Virus record (IMG/VR): IMGVR_UViG_2703718832_000007
Coordinates: 1 to 33,242 of that record
Source of the DNA: a virus
Lineage: Duplodnaviria; Heunggongvirae; Uroviricota; Caudoviricetes
DNA: 33,242 bases
Direction: 5' to 3' (one strand)
The notes under the pieces were generated by a model, which worked only from the letters and a program-made list of their open reading frames with translations, made no database searches and had not been told where the DNA came from. Of the stretch, positions 2,892 to 26,931 are shown piece after piece. A program made the translations under genes and the position numbers. Numbering within the stretch: position 1 is the first letter of the stretch; each line of letters opens with the position of its first letter.

Positions 2892-4895
2892 CTACTTATC
2901 TGATGGTATGAACATACCGGCGCTATTGTCATGCAGACCAACGTAGCCAATGTTTGTACCGGCAGAGCAATAAACATTTATCGTCATTCCAGTAATCTCT
3001 GATTTTTTCGGTAGATCTCCACTAAATATTTCATTCAATGATATTATTTTAACATCCCATTCATCACCAAAGTTTTGTTGAGGGATTTCTAAGAATGTAT
3101 TTCCTGAAGAGGTTGATATGACAATAACTGTCCTGTTATAACCATCATATTCAGTGGATGCAATATTTATCGTGTGCCCCCCTCTACCAACAAAAACCAA
3201 GCTGCAATGTACAATTCCATGTTCAAACCTTTGGTGTATGGAAGACTGTTGAAGGTTAGTTCCGGGATATGAATTTGTCACTGCATAGTAGTCACTACCA
3301 GCATACCCACCACTCTCTTTAACCACTGCACCAGTCCATCCATCAGGGGTAGAACCTGACCAAGAATTAAACTTTGGATTCCTGATAATTGAGTATGGTG
3401 AGTACATCAGACACTGGTTGAAGGTTAACTTACCAGACGCTCTCACACCACCAAGGTCATCTTCTTTATAATATTGTTGTGCAATATCAATTTCCCAAGA
3501 ACATGAAGCACCAGCTTGATTTATAAATCCTGTATCAGTATTCCACTGTTTCGCGTTACTAAGTTGTTTTACAAAATATTTCGCTCTATTATTAAAACCT
3601 GTAGCTAAACCATGTATTCTAAGAGCATAGGAAGAATTAAGTGTATCAAAGTAACCTTTTACTATGCATCCGCGCGTTAAACCTGATTCAAAGCAGACGA
3701 CTGCATCACCAGCACCAGTTCCTCCAGAAGAAATGGCGAAGTTGTTTTCAAAATATCCATCAATTTCTATTCTATCTGAATAACCGAAAACAGATATAGC
3801 CCTGCCTTTATTCCCTTCAAATATACCATTGATGTGCATATCAAACTGGTTATTTATCGCCATTCCATCCCCACCAGTACATGCTGTTATTTTATTTACG
3901 CCATGCATGTATAGAGTGGTCCCTCTAGCAAGATAACTATCAGACCCGTTCAGGTATACCCCGGAAGTACCCCTAGCTAAAAGACTGTCTGTGTTATACC
4001 ACTCTGCATAACCAACTCCGAAGCTAAAGAAGTTATATGTTTGCCCGTTACGCAATTCGACATTTCGAATTTTATTGCGATAGCTTAAACCTCCTAACGC
4101 TATTGCAGCTGCTGGTATTTCAGGATTTGTTGTTGACTCCCACCTTACTAAACCTTTTGTGTAAGCAGGACCATCAGGAAGCATACTTTCTAGGGAAAGG
4201 TTTTCCAGAACACAATCCCATCCCATTGTAATTAGATCAACATCATTATCGTAAAGCCGGAGCTTTGTGAAGTATTTTCCGGCTCCACTTATAGAGGTGC
4301 CATCACGAGGAGTCAATCCATCTGTGATTTTATATTCACCCTCAGGAACAAACACCTGATATGATGCTGCAAGAGCGTTTTTAAAAGCATTTGTGTCATC
4401 AGTAACCCCATCACCTTTAGCGCCAAAATCCTTAACGCTAATCCAGTCTGCGTTTTTGTCATGCTGCGTGCGGCCTACTGAGTTAGTGCGAGGCTGCTTA
4501 ACCCCAACCAGTGCATCACCCATACCGTCTGCGTAGCTAGCGAGCTCCTGCCTGAACTGATCAGGGTCATACTTCAGCACATTAGGAAAATAAAACTGCT
4601 GTGCACCATACGCATCATAAACAGACATAGAATGGCCTTGCACAGTAACGAACTTGGCAATCTGTCCGTTATATACCGGATATCCAGCAGCGTTAATGAT
4701 GATTGGTTGCGAAACAGGAACGTGAGAACCGTCTTCGTTCTCTACATAAACCTGAATCTGGTTTTCAGGATTTACCGGGTCAGTGTCAATTTTTCCGATA
4801 TAAATTTTGCCATTGGCAACCGCTTTAAAAGAACGCGCCATAGTGAAGAGTTGCGAAGGCATTGATACGATCACATTGGCTGTAATGTCTGTCAT
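2892..4895 (-). CDS. Tailspike protein: P22-type head-binding N-terminal domain fused to a right-handed beta-helix (pectate-lyase-like) receptor-binding/depolymerase domain
   Basis: 667 aa; first ~110 residues ([50 protein letters not shown]...[10 protein letters not shown]) match the P22 gp9 head-binding domain; downstream [16 protein letters not shown] motif and Gly/Asn-rich repeats are typical of beta-helix glycanases; the C-terminal domain is unlike P22 gp9. Confidence 0.9.
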
Positions 4896-4950
4896 TTAAT
4901 TTGCTCCAGATACAAGGAATCACCGAAGCATGGCTACGATGAATTTTGGG

Positions 4951-4977
4951 CATAAAAAAACCCAGCCGAAGCTGGGT
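4951..4977 (-). terminator. Rho-independent terminator downstream of ant
   Basis: Minus strand reads ACCCAGC-TTCG-GCTGGGT followed by TTTTTTTAT. Confidence 0.6.
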
Positions 4978-4995
4978 TGTCGCGTTGGTTATCTG

Positions 4996-5940
4996 TCAGT
5001 AGTTATGTACTGAAGGAGGTAATTCTTTATTCTTAAGTCTCATCCATGCGGAAAGATTCGCTGGTCCGTCTGGCTCATTGATATCAACATCTCGTGTGTG
5101 ATTGATTAAAACGTCTCTCGCCATTCCGATAACATACGAGAATTCATGACCGTAGTCGTAGCATCTGCCGGAATAGTTCGATTGAACTTGTTTTAATGCC
5201 GGATACAGTTCGCGGAATAATGCCTGTGAACGGTTAGCATAATCCCATAGCCATACAAGGCTGTTTGCTTCTTTTGCAGAAAGCTCGTTTGCTTTCTTCT
5301 CTTGTTTGCCGATAAACTCGCCTTCAAGCACTACCCTGTGGATGTACTCTACGGCCAGCGGGATTTGTTCAATTGAAAGTTCATCAATGCTGTCAATACC
5401 AAAACGCTGATGAACCATATTGTATGCATCGTCATAGCGAAGTCCTTTCTTTCCTACCAGCATGTTTACTGCATCGCGTAGCGGCGTTCTTTCCTCAACA
5501 GTGGTTTTCTTGCCTTTCACATACTCGCCATGTTTGCGAATTGAAGGTAGAACTTCTGCTGTTACCCACTTGCGGAATTTGTGCGGGACCGAACCTTTAT
5601 TGACAGCATCGCGGCAGCGCAGAACCAATGTATACATACCTGATTCGCTAACAATGCTTAGATTCTGCTCACCACCAAGGGTGTAACTTAAAGTTACTCC
5701 CTTTTCATCGTCATCAAGTGCAGTAAGCGCCTTGCGTGAGTTAGTCAGGGTTAAAGCATCACAAACATCTTTTGCTACAAACCACGGCTCACCGCATTTG
5801 TTGATGACGCGGATTTCACTGTCGCCGAATTTGAAGATGGTGAAATCGTTTTGTGCCTTTGCTATACTTTTCATGTCAATATTTCCTAATCCGATTTGTT
5901 GATACCGAAGCCCTGACTGTTCCCGCAGTTGGGGCTTCAC
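4996..5940 (-). CDS. ant: Antirepressor Ant (immI region)
   Basis: 314 aa; N-terminal region [32 protein letters not shown] is Bro-N/antirepressor-like; sits directly upstream of the tailspike as P22 ant does. Confidence 0.8.
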
Positions 5941-23188: not shown

Positions 23189-23661
23189 ACCTCAATCTCT
23201 CTGACCGTTCCGCCTGCTTCTTTGAATTTTGCAATCAGGCTGTCAGCCTTATGCTCGAACTGACCATAACCAGCGCCAGGCAGTGAAGCCCAGATATTGC
23301 TGCAACGGTCAATTGCCTGACGAATGTCACCGCGATCGATCATGGGTAAAGCACCACGCTCTTTAATCTGTTGCAGTGCCACAGCGTCCTGGCTTTTCGG
23401 AGAGAAGTCTTTCAGGCCAAGCTGCTTACGATAGGCATCCCACCAACGGGAAAGAAGCTGGTAACGTCCGGCTGCTGTTGATTTGAGTTTGGGGTTTAGC
23501 GTGACAAGTTTGCGAGGGTGATCGGAGTAATCAGTGAATAGCTCTCCGCCTACAATGACGTCATAACCATGATTTCTGGTTTTCTGACGTCCGTTATCAG
23601 TTCCCTCTGACCACGCCAGCATATCGAGGAACGCCTTACGTTGATTATTGATTTCCACCAT
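23185..23661 (-). CDS. R: Endolysin R (lytic transglycosylase), lambda-type
   Basis: 158 aa; essentially identical to lambda R over its length ([51 protein letters not shown]...). Confidence 0.95.
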
Positions 23662-23968
23662 CTTCTACTCCGGCTTTTTTAGCAGCGAAGCGTTTGATAA
23701 GCGAACCAATCGAGTCAGTACCGATGTAGCCGATGAACACGCTCGTTATATAAGCGAGATTGCTACTTAGTCCGGCGAAGTCGAGAAGGTCACGAATGAA
23801 CCAGGCGATAATGGCGCACATCGTTGCGTCGATTACTGTTTTTGTAAACGCACCGCCATTATACCTGCCGCGAAGGTACGCCATTGCAAACGCAAGGATT
23901 GCCCCGATGCCTTGTTCCTTTGCCGCAAGAATGGCGGCTAACAGGTCATGTTTTTCTGGCATCTTCAT
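23645..23968 (-). CDS. S: Holin S (class I, dual-start S107/S105), lambda-type
   Basis: 107 aa; matches lambda S including the Met1-Lys2-Met3 dual-start motif ([39 protein letters not shown]...). Confidence 0.95.
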
Positions 23969-24294
23969 GTCTTACCCCCAATAAGGGGATTTGCTCTATT
24001 TAATTAGGAATAAGGTCGATTACTGATAGAACAAATCCAGGCTACTGTGTTTAGTAATCAGATTTGTTCGTGACCGATATGCACGGGCAAAACGGCATGA
24101 GGTTGTTAGCGCAACCTCCTGCCACCGCTTTCACGAAGGTCATATGTAGAAGGCCGCAGCATAACTATCACTGATGAATTCAGGATAGCCAGTGGCTACG
24201 GCTCAGTTTGGGTTGTGGTGGTTGGTGCTGAACTCCAACTTGAGGCTACCCATCCTAGCCCGAAGCTAGGTGCTCACCTCTGAGCGTTAGCGCA

Positions 24295-24804
24295 TCAGCC
24301 TGCGCATTCACCACAATTCTTGTTGTAACTTCCGAATATTTTTTCCCTTTCCGAAGTCACAAATTTTATAGCATCCTCTTTGCGTTTAAATGTCTTGAAG
24401 GCCGCAGTTTTTCTATTAACAAAAACACGAGCATGCCAAAGCCTATCTCTCGAGTGGAAACAAACACCACGACAACCAGACCGGTTCCTTTTCGAGGTTA
24501 TTGTGTTCATGTTGTTTTGCGATCTGCTAACAAGCCTAAGATTTGATATCCTGTTGTCGTCTCTTATGCCATTCACATGATCTATTTCTAAGCCGCTATT
24601 TATTTCGCCATTGCACAAAATCCACGCCAGACGATGAGCAAAGTATCTTTTACCTCCTAAAGATATTTGCCTGTAACCGAACGAATTCAGCGAACCAGCA
24701 ATCATGCCAGGCTTAGATCTTCCTGTTTTTACCTTCCACACGAAGATGCCGGTAGATGGATTAAATGACAAAGATTCTTTAATGCGTTCACTTGTTAAAA
24801 GCAT
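24295..24804 (-). CDS. HNH homing endonuclease with AP2-type DNA-binding domain
   Basis: 169 aa; HNH core GLEIDHVNGIRDDNRISNLRLVSRSQNNMN; C-terminal AP2-like GCRGVCFHSRDRLWHARVFVNRKTAAFKTFKRKEDAIKF; located inside the late leader between tR' and S. Confidence 0.8.
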   Translation of the reverse strand: MLLTSERIKESLSFNPSTGIFVWKVKTGRSKPGMIAGSLNSFGYRQISLGGKRYFAHRLAWILCNGEINSGLEIDHVNGIRDDNRISNLRLVSRSQNNMNTITSKRNRSGCRGVCFHSRDRLWHARVFVNRKTAAFKTFKRKEDAIKFVTSEREKIFGSYNKNCGECAG

Positions 24805-25016
24805 TGCGTAAACCTTTTAGAAAGCGAGCCTGTCTCACAGAAAAGCCGCCCGAGAGAGGTCGCCACCTATAACGGCATTTCTCAGGCTCGCTTACTGAAA
24901 GGATCTCGTTAATATGCGCGTGAGATGCGCTGGAGGGATAACAGGAAAGAGCACTGCATGGTTTTACCATTACATCCGAAGATTTATCTGGTGTAGTCAA
25001 TGCTCTTACCTGTTGT

Positions 25017-25045
25017 GCAAATAAAAAAGCCCACAGGCGGTGGGC
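25017..25045 (-). terminator. tR'-like rho-independent terminator of the short late leader transcript
   Basis: Minus strand reads GCCCAC-CGCCT-GTGGGC followed by TTTTTTATTTG; flanking sequence (TTTTTTAT.TGCACAACAGGTAAGAGCATTGA) aligns with the lambda tR' region as I recall it. Confidence 0.65.
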
Positions 25046-25087
25046 TTGTGATGGTTGCTGAATGCAAAAGCGGCAGCATATGTGAAT

Positions 25088-25117
25088 ATTATGGCTAAAT
25101 GGCTAATTGCATGTCAA
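25088..25117 (-). promoter_or_regulatory. Late promoter (pR'-like) with presumed Q-utilisation site
   Basis: Minus strand reads TTGACA, 18 nt spacer, CATAAT immediately after the Q-like stop codon, about 50 nt upstream of the tR'-like terminator. Confidence 0.5.
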
Positions 25118-25613
25118 GGCTTTTAACAGCAACATGCTTAACTTTCTCAACACGTTTACGCATTTTGAAAGCATTTTGCATTGGTTGGTACAAAACAAAT
25201 AACGACGATTTCAGGATGTCGTCAATTTCGTTTCTACAGGTTGCCAGTGAAGGTTTTCTCCATCCCTCGCCACCACGTCCACACATCTTGCGTGGCTTTG
25301 CAGTCGCGTGATAGTAGGATGCAATTGCTCGCTTTGATGAACCATGAGCGTAGTAGCTGAGGAGGATGCCAAAGGCTTTCTTGTCAATGTACATGACGGA
25401 ATCGACGACCTGAGAAATCAACATTCCATCATCATCATTACACATTGGCCTTGTCATAACTCTTCCCGGCTCTACGCTCTCCATGAACTTAGCTATTACG
25501 CTGCTCATACGCTTTTCCAGACGACCTGAATAAACCCATGCGCCCCACAGTTCAAGCCAGCCATTCAGCCAATCGTGCTGTTCTTTGGTGAGGTTTAGTT
25601 CTCTTATGCTCAT
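25095..25613 (-). CDS. Late antiterminator Q, phage-82/PF06530 family (not lambda Q type)
   Basis: 172 aa; central RPMCNDDDGMLISQVVDSVMYIDKKAFGILLSYYAHG matches the conserved RP.C.DDD.M...LL..YY core of Q82-type antiterminators; sits immediately upstream of the late promoter and lysis genes. Confidence 0.75.
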   Translation of the reverse strand: MSIRELNLTKEQHDWLNGWLELWGAWVYSGRLEKRMSSVIAKFMESVEPGRVMTRPMCNDDDGMLISQVVDSVMYIDKKAFGILLSYYAHGSSKRAIASYYHATAKPRKMCGRGGEGWRKPSLATCRNEIDDILKSSLFVLYQPMQNAFKMRKRVEKVKHVAVKSLDMQLAI

Positions 25614-25798
25614 CGTCTTCCCCTCTTGCCCTGTTTGACCATCAGGACGCCGTTAACTATTACGTGACGCTCGCCTTTGCTGTCTCGGTTGTACTTGAGC
25701 ACTGTTCCTCTTGCGCAGGAAAGCATCCTCGCCACTTCGGTCTGATTGCCTCGTGTCTGGATAAGAAGCTCTGGTATCGTTTGAATTGTGGCGTTCAT
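25610..25798 (-). CDS. ninH: NinH
   Basis: 62 aa; IPELLIQTRGNQTEVARMLSCARGTVLKYNRDSKGERHVIVNGVLMV aligns with lambda NinH (IPDMLVEAYGNQTEVARRLKCSRGTVRKYVDDKDGKMHAIVNDVLMV). Confidence 0.85.
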   Translation of the reverse strand: MNATIQTIPELLIQTRGNQTEVARMLSCARGTVLKYNRDSKGERHVIVNGVLMVKQGKRGRR

Positions 25799-26157
25799 GC
25801 GTTCTCCAGTTCGGTGATTTTTATTCCAAGCCGTCCGCCTGGTACTTTCACGCCACGAATTACGCGAATGTCATCGAATTGCTCGTCATCTTCCGCAAAT
25901 CCGGCGTGGATAAGGGAGTCGAGTAAACCTTTCAGGATGTTATCGAGGTCGCGGCGGCGGGAGTCTGGAACGTCTGCGATGACTTTGATGCGGAGTCGTG
26001 ATTTGGTGAAAATGTCTAACTTAAGTTGGCGGATGATTTGCTGAACGTCTTTTCGGTATTTCTGGCCTTTATCGCTTATGTAATATTGGCTTCCCCGTCT
26101 TCGCCAGTAGGTATTCACCGACGGCGGGTATGGAAGCACAAACTGATATTCGTTCAT
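25795..26157 (-). CDS. rusA: RusA-type Holliday junction resolvase
   Basis: 120 aa; LPYPPSVNTYW...DVPDSRRRDLDNILKGLLDSLIHAGF...GGRLGIKITE matches the RusA family pattern (LPWPPSNNRYY...MPDRRRRDLDN...GGRLELTITE). Confidence 0.85.
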   Translation of the reverse strand: MNEYQFVLPYPPSVNTYWRRRGSQYYISDKGQKYRKDVQQIIRQLKLDIFTKSRLRIKVIADVPDSRRRDLDNILKGLLDSLIHAGFAEDDEQFDDIRVIRGVKVPGGRLGIKITELENA

Positions 26158-26432
26158 TGGACAAACACCCTCCCATTGTTAACCAATTTTTTAAGGGTAA
26201 GCATAATGGCCCGATCCATTTCAGCCCTTCGCTCTTCCCTGCTCATATCTCTCCCATTATCAATTCTTGAATGACAATCAACACATAGCGCAGCAGTAAG
26301 GCAATCATCTACTTTAATCCCAACCCCCTTCCCTTCATTTCTGTGAGCGGCCTGAACTCCGTATCTTCCGCAAAGAACGCAAAATTCAATATCCCTTACT
26401 GCCTGAAGCCATTTTTTGCTTCTAAACATCAA
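26154..26432 (-). CDS. DUF1364 / YbcO-like small Cys/His-rich nin-region protein
   Basis: 92 aa; Cys/His spacing (C..C...AH...ALC..CH..ID) resembles E. coli YbcO as I recall it. Confidence 0.55.
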   Translation of the reverse strand: MMFRSKKWLQAVRDIEFCVLCGRYGVQAAHRNEGKGVGIKVDDCLTAALCVDCHSRIDNGRDMSREERRAEMDRAIMLTLKKLVNNGRVFVQ

Positions 26433-26931
26433 TCCCCTCCAAAAAACGTCGGTACGCTGATTTGTTTTTTATGTTGCACACTGTCTGCGCACAAACACCA
26501 AATTCTTTGGCTATATCTCTGTATTTGCCTTTTGATTTATATATTGATTTCACTTGTTCTGGCGTTAGTTTGCAGAAATGATGATTAAACCCATGAACAA
26601 GCAATCCGGAATCAAATCCATGTTTCGCATTTTCTGTTCGCGTTACCCACTCAAGATTTTCAACTTTATTATTAAGTTTATTTCCATCCTTGTGATTAAC
26701 TTCCGGTTTGCCATCTGGGTTATCAATAAATACTTCTGCAACAATTCTGTGAACCATTTTATATGATGGTCTTTTCCCGCCACCTGGATACAGACCGACA
26801 AATGCATATCCTCCTGGTTTAATGCCATGAGATAATTTTTTTGATTTACGGCATGAAATGATGTCTCCATTTTCAGTTACTTTATATATACCCTCAAAGC
26901 CGGGGATATCTTTTTCTTTAACATCACTCAT
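26422..26931 (-). CDS. HNH homing endonuclease (NUMOD4 N-terminal motif, HNH core, C-terminal helix-turn-helix)
   Basis: 169 aa; NUMOD4-like IPGFEGIYKVTENGDIIS; HNH core EVNHKDGNKLNNKVENLEWVTRTEN; AT-rich coding sequence; inserted between the DUF1364 gene and ninF. Confidence 0.8.
   Translation of the reverse strand: MSDVKEKDIPGFEGIYKVTENGDIISCRKSKKLSHGIKPGGYAFVGLYPGGGKRPSYKMVHRIVAEVFIDNPDGKPEVNHKDGNKLNNKVENLEWVTRTENAKHGFDSGLLVHGFNHHFCKLTPEQVKSIYKSKGKYRDIAKEFGVCAQTVCNIKNKSAYRRFLEGIDV

Follow-up and report, generated by a model that had tools for sequence, protein, structure and literature searches.

Free-standing homing endonuclease genes (HEGs) have been studied mainly in lytic phages such as T4, T5, and ICP1. 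In T4, the Seg and Mob enzymes carry out intron-less homing, and the ribosome-binding sites (RBSs) of their genes are sequestered in hairpins on the read-through transcript. Shiga toxin (Stx) phages carry their cargo between Q, PR′, and tR′ and the lysis genes, where Q-dependent late transcription is its sole source of expression. Proteins combining an HNH nuclease with an AP2 domain are a recognized family of homing endonucleases (Magnani et al. 2004, as cited in PMC10448857). Here we analyzed a 33,242-nucleotide stretch of DNA from a Caudoviricetes virus (IMG/VR record IMGVR_UViG_2703718832_000007, positions 1 to 33,242; hereafter the window), in which a gene for a 169-amino-acid HNH-AP2 protein lies between the late antiterminator gene Q and the holin gene S. 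Comparison with related phages indicates, with a probability of about three in four, that positions 24315-24939 are a free-standing HEG cassette inserted site specifically into the non-coding late leader of a lambdoid (P22/Sf6-like) prophage, which would offer a well-delimited example of such an element among temperate lambdoid phages of enteric bacteria.

The window is oriented opposite to the lambda map, and its late operon reads on the minus strand, to which the late-leader features described below belong. The original prediction held that a mobile insertion carrying the HNH gene had replaced roughly 0.8 kb of a lambda-like leader, and proposed to define its boundaries by alignment with lambda and by comparison with prophages lacking it. 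Both comparisons were carried out. In a multiple alignment, deletion of 24315-24939 makes the window collinear with L029, L031, CUS-3, HK75, HK629, lambda, and phiEt88; for HK629, the aligned part was the leader portion downstream of that phage's own HNH gene. The inserted cassette (24315..24939), which comprises an RNA leader and most of the HNH-AP2 open reading frame (ORF), is thus a 625-bp insertion, with a junction that is ambiguous by the dinucleotide TT. When a synthetic empty site joining 24940 to 24314 was used as a query, the E. coli prophage L029 was found to cross the junction at 96% identity, with an identical 3′ side, and the Erwinia phage phiEt88 crossed it at 84% identity. The leader of SFAD3 (L031) is likewise uninterrupted, and the equivalent insertion point in lambda is ~44859/44860. 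The empty allele reads ...CAGTGCTCTT(A/T)(T/C)C(T)GTT^GTGGTGAATGCGCAGGCTGATGCG... and the filled allele ...CAGTGCTCTTTCCTGTT[625 bp]GTGGTGAATGCGCAGGCTGATGCG.... For the left (5′) target flank, CAGTGCTCTTTCCTGTT (24940..24956), the alignment partners are lambda 44844-44859 and the empty sites. The right (3′) flank, GTGGTGAATGCGCAGGCTGATGCG(CTAA) (24287..24314), defined by alignment with HNH-less leaders, is present in CUS-3, L029, L031, and phiEt88, all of which lack the gene, as well as in HK629, and has diverged in lambda. Since the ORF extends 20 nt into this right flank, its last six codons and TGA stop come from the flank. The mobile insertion in a regulatory leader is therefore well supported by the empty sites of L029, L031, CUS-3, HK75, lambda, and phiEt88, and a precise insertion with identifiable empty sites in close relatives is expected of a free-standing HEG. 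The extent of the replacement also stood, as the non-lambda stretch of ~775-776 bp matches 24215-25016 within a few bases. The idea of a single replaced block did not, because two mosaic patches (24957-24996 and 24242-24286) also differ from other leaders; judging from the alignments, the ~0.8-kb replacement is the 625-bp insertion plus these two small variable patches. An HNH gene encoded in a group I or group II intron was rejected, since an Rfam search over 23500-25800 at an E value of ≤1 returned no intron family and the site is a non-coding leader. A small polymorphism was noted just left of the junction (24940-24945), where an extra T gives CCTGTT in the HNH-bearing alleles of the window, Enterobacter, Klebsiella, and Cronobacter; the empty sites read C-GTT in E. 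coli and lambda and CTGTT in phiEt88.

The insertion point lies within a conserved hairpin directly downstream of tR′. A conserved post-terminator block, TGCACAACAGGTAAGAGCATTGA (24997..25019), makes up its 5′ arm and pairs with the sequence around the insertion point. The arms, GCACAAC-A-GGTAAGAGCA (5′) and TGCTCTTATC-GTTGTG(G/C) (3′, with the left target flank as its proximal part), form a 17-bp stem that encloses a variable loop of ~45 nt, and the predicted fold reaches -33 kcal/mol in both lambda and the empty site of L029. The hairpin occupies 24940-25019 plus 24291-24314 in the window, 44786-44866 in lambda, and about 1440-1525 in L029; according to the empty-site alignment, the phage-dependent loop corresponds to 24957..24996. 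The block TGCACAACAGGTAAGAGCATTGA is exact in lambda (44785-44807), HK75, CUS-3, and HK629 and carries 3-4 mismatches in Enterobacter, Cronobacter, and other loci, and the arms are conserved from lambda to phiEt88, behind three Q families. The cassette interrupts the 3′ arm and thereby splits the basal helix. The hairpin gave no match in Rfam. Its weak similarity to Sf6 tRNA-Asn raised the possibility of a decayed tRNA gene, which was discarded because the acceptor-like arms do not match.

The HNH ORF (24295..24804) begins with an ATG preceded, 8 nt upstream, by an AAGG Shine-Dalgarno (SD) sequence at 24816..24813. The ORF list, a Pfam HNH_3 match (E = 4e-19; 68.4 bits versus a cutoff of 24.8, hence above the gathering threshold), and a match to phrog_99, “HNH endonuclease” (E = 1.7e-61), confirm the predicted 169-residue HNH protein between tR′ and S. 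The HNH_3 match spans residues 54-99 and profile positions 1-46 of 46. Six residues (D75, H76, N84, N88, N97, and N100) are invariant among 32-34 homologues in two alignments, and the conserved residues align with the DH...N...N motif of I-HmuI. The N-terminal half of a 34-sequence family profile reached I-HmuI (1U3E) at 2.7e-9, and the C-terminal half reached the plant AP2/ERF domains of WRI1 (5.3e-9), TEM1 (1e-4), ERF096, and AtERF1. An AlphaFold2 model with a mean predicted local distance difference test score (pLDDT) of 90.2 shows a C-terminal beta-beta-beta-alpha domain, with strands at 114-117, 122-129, and 132-139 and a helix at 142-160. In Foldseek comparisons, the model matched I-HmuI (E = 4e-4, 29% identity over 87 columns) and several AP2 domains (probability 0.99-1.0, root mean square deviation of 2.1 Å over 60 columns). 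The modeled structure and the family profile, and not the Pfam hidden Markov model, thus uphold the predicted C-terminal AP2-type DNA-binding domain, with the AP2 fold at about residues 110-160. A search of 5.8 billion proteins returned 549 relatives at E ≤ 1e-10, and among the matches listed, about half of 120 relatives carry both Pfam AP2 and HNH_3. The ratio of nonsynonymous to synonymous substitution rates (dN/dS), 0.13-0.19 against the Klebsiella and Enterobacter copies, indicates purifying selection. The protein is apparently a functional HNH-AP2 enzyme, as far as its sequence tells, and public records already list the gene as “HNH endonuclease.”

We then examined where this gene occurs. 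The exact protein was found in 108 assembly blocks, in every one of them between the lysis genes and a 21-type Q, with three holin contexts (lambda-type, holin_2_3, or other holins); the locus L010 (GCA_001575965.1) matches the window at 100% identity across 4 kb. An Enterobacter copy (95% identical) lies behind a PF06323 Q together with a holin_8 gene, Klebsiella copies sit in further, different contexts, and a Cronobacter copy (67% identical) lies behind a lambda-type Q, the type (PF03589) also found with homologues 60-67% identical in Cronobacter and metagenomic contigs. Altogether the junction is occupied in four genera (E. coli, Klebsiella, Enterobacter, and Cronobacter) by relatives of 67-100% amino acid identity, and both junction sequences, left and right, are shared by the Cronobacter, Enterobacter, and Klebsiella loci. 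Homology to the window starts at 24955/6 in the Enterobacter and Klebsiella loci and at 25039 in L017. Its other end lies at 24286/7 in L015-L018 and the Enterobacter copies and at 24144 in Klebsiella. Short shared flanks of 17 bp and 28 bp accompany the gene into the Enterobacter backgrounds. The cluster at ≥90% identity includes names from E. coli, Klebsiella, Salmonella, Enterobacter, Cronobacter, and Pantoea. At the DNA level, the gene was detected in 0 of 5,426 complete E. coli genomes (by megablast) and in 0 of 50,697 phage records, and a scan of species-representative genomes with the protein found no relative. The leader query, in contrast, was matched in 913 of the same 5,426 E. coli genomes, in agreement with the original view that this is not the gene of a conserved operon. 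Such a sporadic distribution, combined with the same site in varied genomes, reads as the comparative signature of a HEG.

The interval between Q and S has also received other endonuclease genes. HK629 and several E. coli prophages (e.g., L032) carry a different HNH-AP2 gene there, 42% identical at the amino acid level (2060-2572 in HK629, L001; 1431-1943 in L032). It sits between an HK629-type terminator upstream and a second, 21-type copy of tR′ downstream, and its insertion left the leader hairpin intact in both. One protein, P0005, is a natural chimera in which an HK629-type N terminus and a window-type C terminus are joined within the motif DNRISNLRL. In the E. coli locus L015 (GCA_902505335.1), a second, unrelated HNH-AP2 gene (4790-5290; 166 amino acids; 29% identical) was observed directly after the 3′ flank of a window-type cassette, where homology to the window stops at 24286; its cluster at 90% identity has 39 members, and the exact sequence occurs on 97 contigs. 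With this tandem gene included, three HNH-AP2 lineages use ~300 bp of leader.

These comparisons also bear on how the cassette spreads. It could be a passive mosaic module (“moron”) that moves only by homologous recombination at the flanking leader blocks, with the nuclease put to some other use by the phage, such as late-infection degradation or exclusion of competing phage or host DNA. The fillings of the Q-S interval are indeed highly mosaic across phages, the flanking blocks are conserved in many of them and could serve as recombination arms, a recombinant chimera (P0005) exists, and PADLOC matches are confined to accessory “HEase” models. We nevertheless consider this explanation unlikely, because the junctions are precise to the base and do not differ among four genera and three Q families, a specificity beyond that of ordinary mosaic joints; because three HNH-AP2 lineages within ~300 bp are expected of nuclease-driven invasion; and because the domain architecture matches that of characterized homing enzymes. 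A defense-system assignment was also tried and rejected, as PADLOC gave only accessory models named “homing endonuclease.”

Less probable still is a domesticated regulator, in which the AP2 domain would bind a phage or host sequence as a repressor or anti-defense factor and the HNH domain would no longer cut. The purifying selection fits a non-nuclease role as well, and AP2 domains have repeatedly been co-opted from HEGs (PMC10448857 and bioRxiv 10.64898/2026.02.23.707548); for instance, the CapR+AP2 “CasPR” proteins silence cas genes (bioRxiv 10.64898/2026.02.23.707548). However, CasPRs have CapR, not HNH, and occur in Bacillota (bioRxiv 10.64898/2026.02.23.707548). In addition, the HNH catalytic and metal-binding positions of the window family are all invariant, and the site-specific, sporadic pattern is what one sees in selfish elements and not in regulators. 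P22/Sf6-type phages use headful packaging, and the carriers of the gene have terminase genes of this type (GP3_package with Terminase_6, or Sf6_terminase with Terminase_3). A packaging-associated HNH that aids cos cleavage by terminase, as HK97 gp74 does, can be set aside with near certainty even though many phage HNH proteins have a packaging role (PMC3592412; Kala et al. 2014), because the protein belongs to a different subfamily (HNH_3 with AP2, not PF01844 with a zinc ribbon), because the gene lies between Q and the holin gene, away from terminase as predicted, because L015, L019, and L027 have a separate PF01844 HNH adjoining a cos-type Terminase_4 besides the window-type gene, and because close relatives lack the gene altogether.

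Within the presumed HEG cassette, the 5′ untranslated region (~125 nt) directly upstream of the start codon is a structured, pseudoknotted RNA leader (24805..24932), a call that rests on fold energy, covariation, and a covariance model. Wide DNA matches within the insert are confined to 24802-24936, which is 96-98% identical to sequence found directly upstream of rha, kilA-N, or GIY-YIG-type genes that follow Rz in HK620, phi80, and CFT073, among many others. The fold comprises a small hairpin (P0), a long helix (P1+P2), two helices (P3 and P4), and a pseudoknot pairing CGAGAG, just 5′ of P1, with CTCTCG, between P4 and P3; its minimum free energy is -50.6 kcal/mol (z = -3.0). The 3′ strand of P1 (GCTTTCTAAAAGG, 24825..24813) includes the SD sequence of the HNH gene. 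A pattern scan of viral contigs yielded at least 120 loci and 66 distinct leader copies. In a MAFFT alignment, 85.9% of cells pair versus 36-50% with the partners slid, and 22 pairs change on both sides, a count reached by 0 of 500 shuffles. The corresponding values in a covariance-model alignment of 75 matches, which leans toward the model, are 89.7% versus ≤47%, with 29 of 38 pairs changing on both sides (0 of 500 shuffles). RNAalifold run on the MAFFT alignment recovered the fold in part, and a hand-drawn structure with covariance-model realignment was used. The pseudoknot was scored per sequence, because a 1-nt indel between sequence classes bars one fixed register; it forms 5-7 bp in 55 of 55 sequences, at pair 36-94, 28 sequences have GC and 23 have CG, and the variants include CGAGAG:CTCTCG, CCCGAG:CTCGGG, CCAAGA:TCTTGG, CCCAGA:TCTGGG, and CCCAAG:CTTGGG.

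The window holds one copy of this leader, with a covariance-model score of 146 bits. Further loci include L006 and L007 (both 1482-1626), L014 (6190-6334), L028 (5257-5397), and ~70 others. In enterobacterial phages the element usually stands before rha, kilA-N, or antirepressor genes located after Rz, and 47 distinct downstream ORFs include 27 Rha, 9 KilA-N, 2 ANT, 2 HNH_3, 1 MUG113, and 1 T5orf172. Against the 4,227 covariance models of Rfam 15, the window gave only chance-level matches (mir-627 at 24 bits versus a gathering score of 86), and the HK620 and CUS-3 loci bearing the element gave no match at E ≤ 0.1; a literature search for a rha leader RNA found nothing specific. The leader is therefore a candidate new cis-regulatory RNA controlling rha/kilA-type genes. 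We infer that it would restrain translation of toxic late accessory genes and that the endonuclease gene has captured it. An ORF of 70 amino acids that overlaps the leader (24788..25000, minus strand) is not considered a gene, as it has no PHROG match and only one sub-threshold Pfam match and is covered by the structured RNA. Separately, some prophages have the leader twice, in direct orientation, upstream of the HNH gene and again after Rz, so that the copies bracket the whole lysis cassette (3868-4010 and 6120-6264 in L009; 3868-4010 and 6190-6334 in L014; also in L025, L026, and L028); such pairs are potential substrates for deletion or module exchange.

Taken together, a working model for homing can be proposed. 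The HNH gene would be transcribed only within the Q-antiterminated late transcript, by polymerase reading through tR′. Late expression of this kind, which had been predicted, is a reasonable inference because the ORF is co-oriented with the late transcript and lies downstream of tR′, and because the promoter and terminator scan between tR′ and S gave no further signal of either type. The RBS would be held in P1 of the leader RNA borrowed from rha/kilA-type genes, and translation would therefore be restrained or would depend on an unfolding or processing event. Once made, the protein would recognize through its AP2 domain the uninterrupted leader (roughly ...GCTCTTATCGTT^GTGGTGAATGCGCAGG...) of HEG-less lambdoid genomes that are co-resident or co-infecting, and would nick or cut near this site. 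Recombinational repair from the HEG-bearing copy would then duplicate the cassette with its short flanks, as in intron-less homing, and the disruption of the site by the insertion would protect the carrier.

Several points weigh against this interpretation. The Pfam AP2 model gave no match to the window protein even at E ≤ 10, and a clade-only profile built from the eight closest relatives and compared with the PDB reached I-HmuI and not AP2. The proposed recognition target is deduced solely from the insertion point. I-HmuI-type HNH enzymes are nickases that often cut away from the insertion site, and the recognition sequence may therefore not span the junction. The conserved flanks could allow spread by ordinary homologous recombination, free of any nuclease action. 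The extra T next to the junction could reflect co-conversion, target immunity, or mere shared ancestry, and sequestration of the SD sequence might leave the protein rarely made. A broader proposal goes further than the HEG interpretation and is offered only tentatively, as we judge it somewhat short of even odds: an HNH-AP2 lineage would be specialized on the hairpin downstream of tR′, making the Q-S junction a nuclease-driven hotspot, and the leader would represent an undescribed class of cis-regulatory RNA. As part of the same tentative proposal, the leader would gate translation of toxic late accessory genes via SD sequestration, with a ligand, a protein, or RNase III processing as possible triggers.

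The surrounding late leader is organized, on the minus strand, in the order Q, PR′, terminator, HNH ORF, holin S, R (endolysin), and Rz. Q (25095..25613; 172 amino acids) is of the phage 21/Sf6/HK629 type according to Pfam (Phage_antitermQ, PF06530; E = 1.3e-25), PHROG (phrog_943; E = 5.6e-93), and DNA identity, and in the Sf6 annotation the module is termed “similar to phage 21 Q.” The end of Q is overlapped by a PR′-like late promoter of strong sigma-70 type (25088..25117; TTGACA-18-CATAAT, 11 of 12 matches in a consensus scan), at the position annotated as pR′ in HK75 and Sf6. The tR′-like intrinsic terminator, AAGCCCACCGCCTGTGGGCTT plus TTTTATTTGC (25017..25047), was identified by a terminator scan and by alignments; its stem (25047..25027) is followed by a T-run. 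The hairpin AAGCCCACCGCCTGTGGGCTT is the HK629-type variant, neither that of lambda nor that of phage 21, and the homologous position in HK629 bears an annotated rho-independent terminator. Beyond the cassette, the short variable patch (24242..24286) contains a UUCG-loop hairpin (CCTAGC-TTCG-GGCTAGG) and is identical in L029; it is followed by the lambda-type S-proximal leader (23969..24241; 97-98.6% identity to five phages) and by holin S of the lambda family (23645..23968; 107 amino acids; Phage_holin_3_1, E = 2.4e-30), the first lysis gene.

The flanks were compared by BLAST with those of lambda, HK75, Sf6, CUS-3, and HK629. The original prediction of lambda-like flanks held on the S side, where window 23600-24220 is 97.3% identical to lambda 44933-45554 and S plus ~250 bp upstream (23600-24220/24241) is 97-98.6% identical in the five phages. 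It did not extend to Q, PR′, and the terminator, which are of the phage 21/HK629 type (97.8% identity to HK629 and ~93% to HK75 and CUS-3 on the Q side); here lambda matches in one 32-bp block, 24997-25028 (lambda 44776-44807), and two more short lambda blocks align once the insert is removed. These identities point to a phage 21/HK629-type Q-PR′-tR′ module joined to a lambda-type S leader. The likeness to the site where Stx phages carry toxin genes is positional only and rests on general knowledge, and no Stx-converting phages were among the organisms named first in the leader search.

The Q-S interval is filled differently in other phages. The filling measures 125 bp in lambda, 170 bp in HK75, and 238 bp in CUS-3; Sf6 has tRNA genes there, and HK629 has a different HNH gene. 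An ARAGORN scan of the whole window found zero tRNA genes, so a filling in the style of Sf6 and phage 21 is absent. In HK75 (L002), a perfect tRNA T-arm-like sequence, GCCGGTTCGATTCCGGC, with CCACAACCCA after it, lies in the filling (~1824-1993) and points to a tRNA gene or its remnant at the place of tRNA-Thr and tRNA-Asn in Sf6 and phage 21. Outside this interval, the nin region of the window holds a second free-standing endonuclease gene (26422-26931, minus strand; NUMOD4 plus HNH_3; 169 amino acids; phrog_59, E = 7.6e-51) between ninF and an ORF of 92 amino acids (26154..26432), upstream of rusA. This gene is present in L010 and L014 and is replaced in L008, L009, and L011 by other genes (an ORF of 70 amino acids, or roi/Rha-ANT).

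The HNH-AP2 homing endonucleases are already known as a family, and the HK629 record already shows an HNH gene between Q and S. A literature search for HEGs in lambdoid late leaders found nothing specific; in the literature searched, the mapped empty site, the hairpin target, the occupancy by several lineages, and the captured RNA leader appear undescribed. As the empty site exists in lambda, standard lambda genetics would suffice for a direct test of the homing hypothesis. Cutting of HEG-less leaders by the enzyme, should it occur, would promote recombination precisely between Q and the lysis genes. This would be a mechanistic contribution to a hotspot that exchanges Shiga toxin genes, tRNA genes, and other morons, and it could explain the extreme mosaicism there. 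The leader RNA is the most unusual part of the locus and the most worth following up, being strongly backed by covariation, widespread in enterobacterial phages, and absent from Rfam; the regulation of rha/kilA-type genes is poorly understood, and this RNA is a candidate regulator.

Among known systems, the cassette resembles the IPA-HNH HEGs of vibriophage ICP1 (Barth et al. 2023, PMC10448857). These enzymes likewise have an N-terminal HNH and a C-terminal AP2 domain, are small (~170 amino acids) and free-standing, and occur sporadically at boundaries of genetic exchange. They differ in that the AP2 domain of the window protein is too diverged for the Pfam model; moreover, the window site is a non-coding regulatory leader of temperate lambdoid phages, whereas theirs lie between or within genes of lytic phages. 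For the nuclease half, the best match is I-HmuI of Bacillus phage SPO1 (PDB 1U3E), which shares the D-H...N...N His-Me finger. However, the I-HmuI gene lies in a group I intron within the DNA polymerase gene, and the enzyme has a helix-turn-helix C-terminal domain and nicks one strand, while the window gene is intron free (by the lack of an Rfam match) and intergenic and has an AP2 C-terminal domain. The T4 Seg and Mob genes are likewise inserted between conserved sequences, absent from close relatives, and provided with an RBS buried in RNA, and by analogy the window cassette would share their predicted spread by cutting of the HEG-less allele and co-conversion of the flanks. Their nucleases belong to other families (Seg is GIY-YIG), and their simple hairpin with an internal late promoter contrasts with the multi-helix pseudoknot of ~125 nt shared with non-nuclease genes in the window. 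Gp62 of HK629 and the HNH protein of the E. coli E2348/69 type occupy the same interval, behind the same Q/promoter/terminator variant and with the same HNH-AP2 layout, but gp62 is inserted elsewhere, upstream of a 21-type copy of tR′, and without the rha-type RNA leader. Finally, in contrast to the cargo of Stx phages and to morons, the cargo of the window would be a selfish nuclease with a base-precise target rather than a host-fitness gene.

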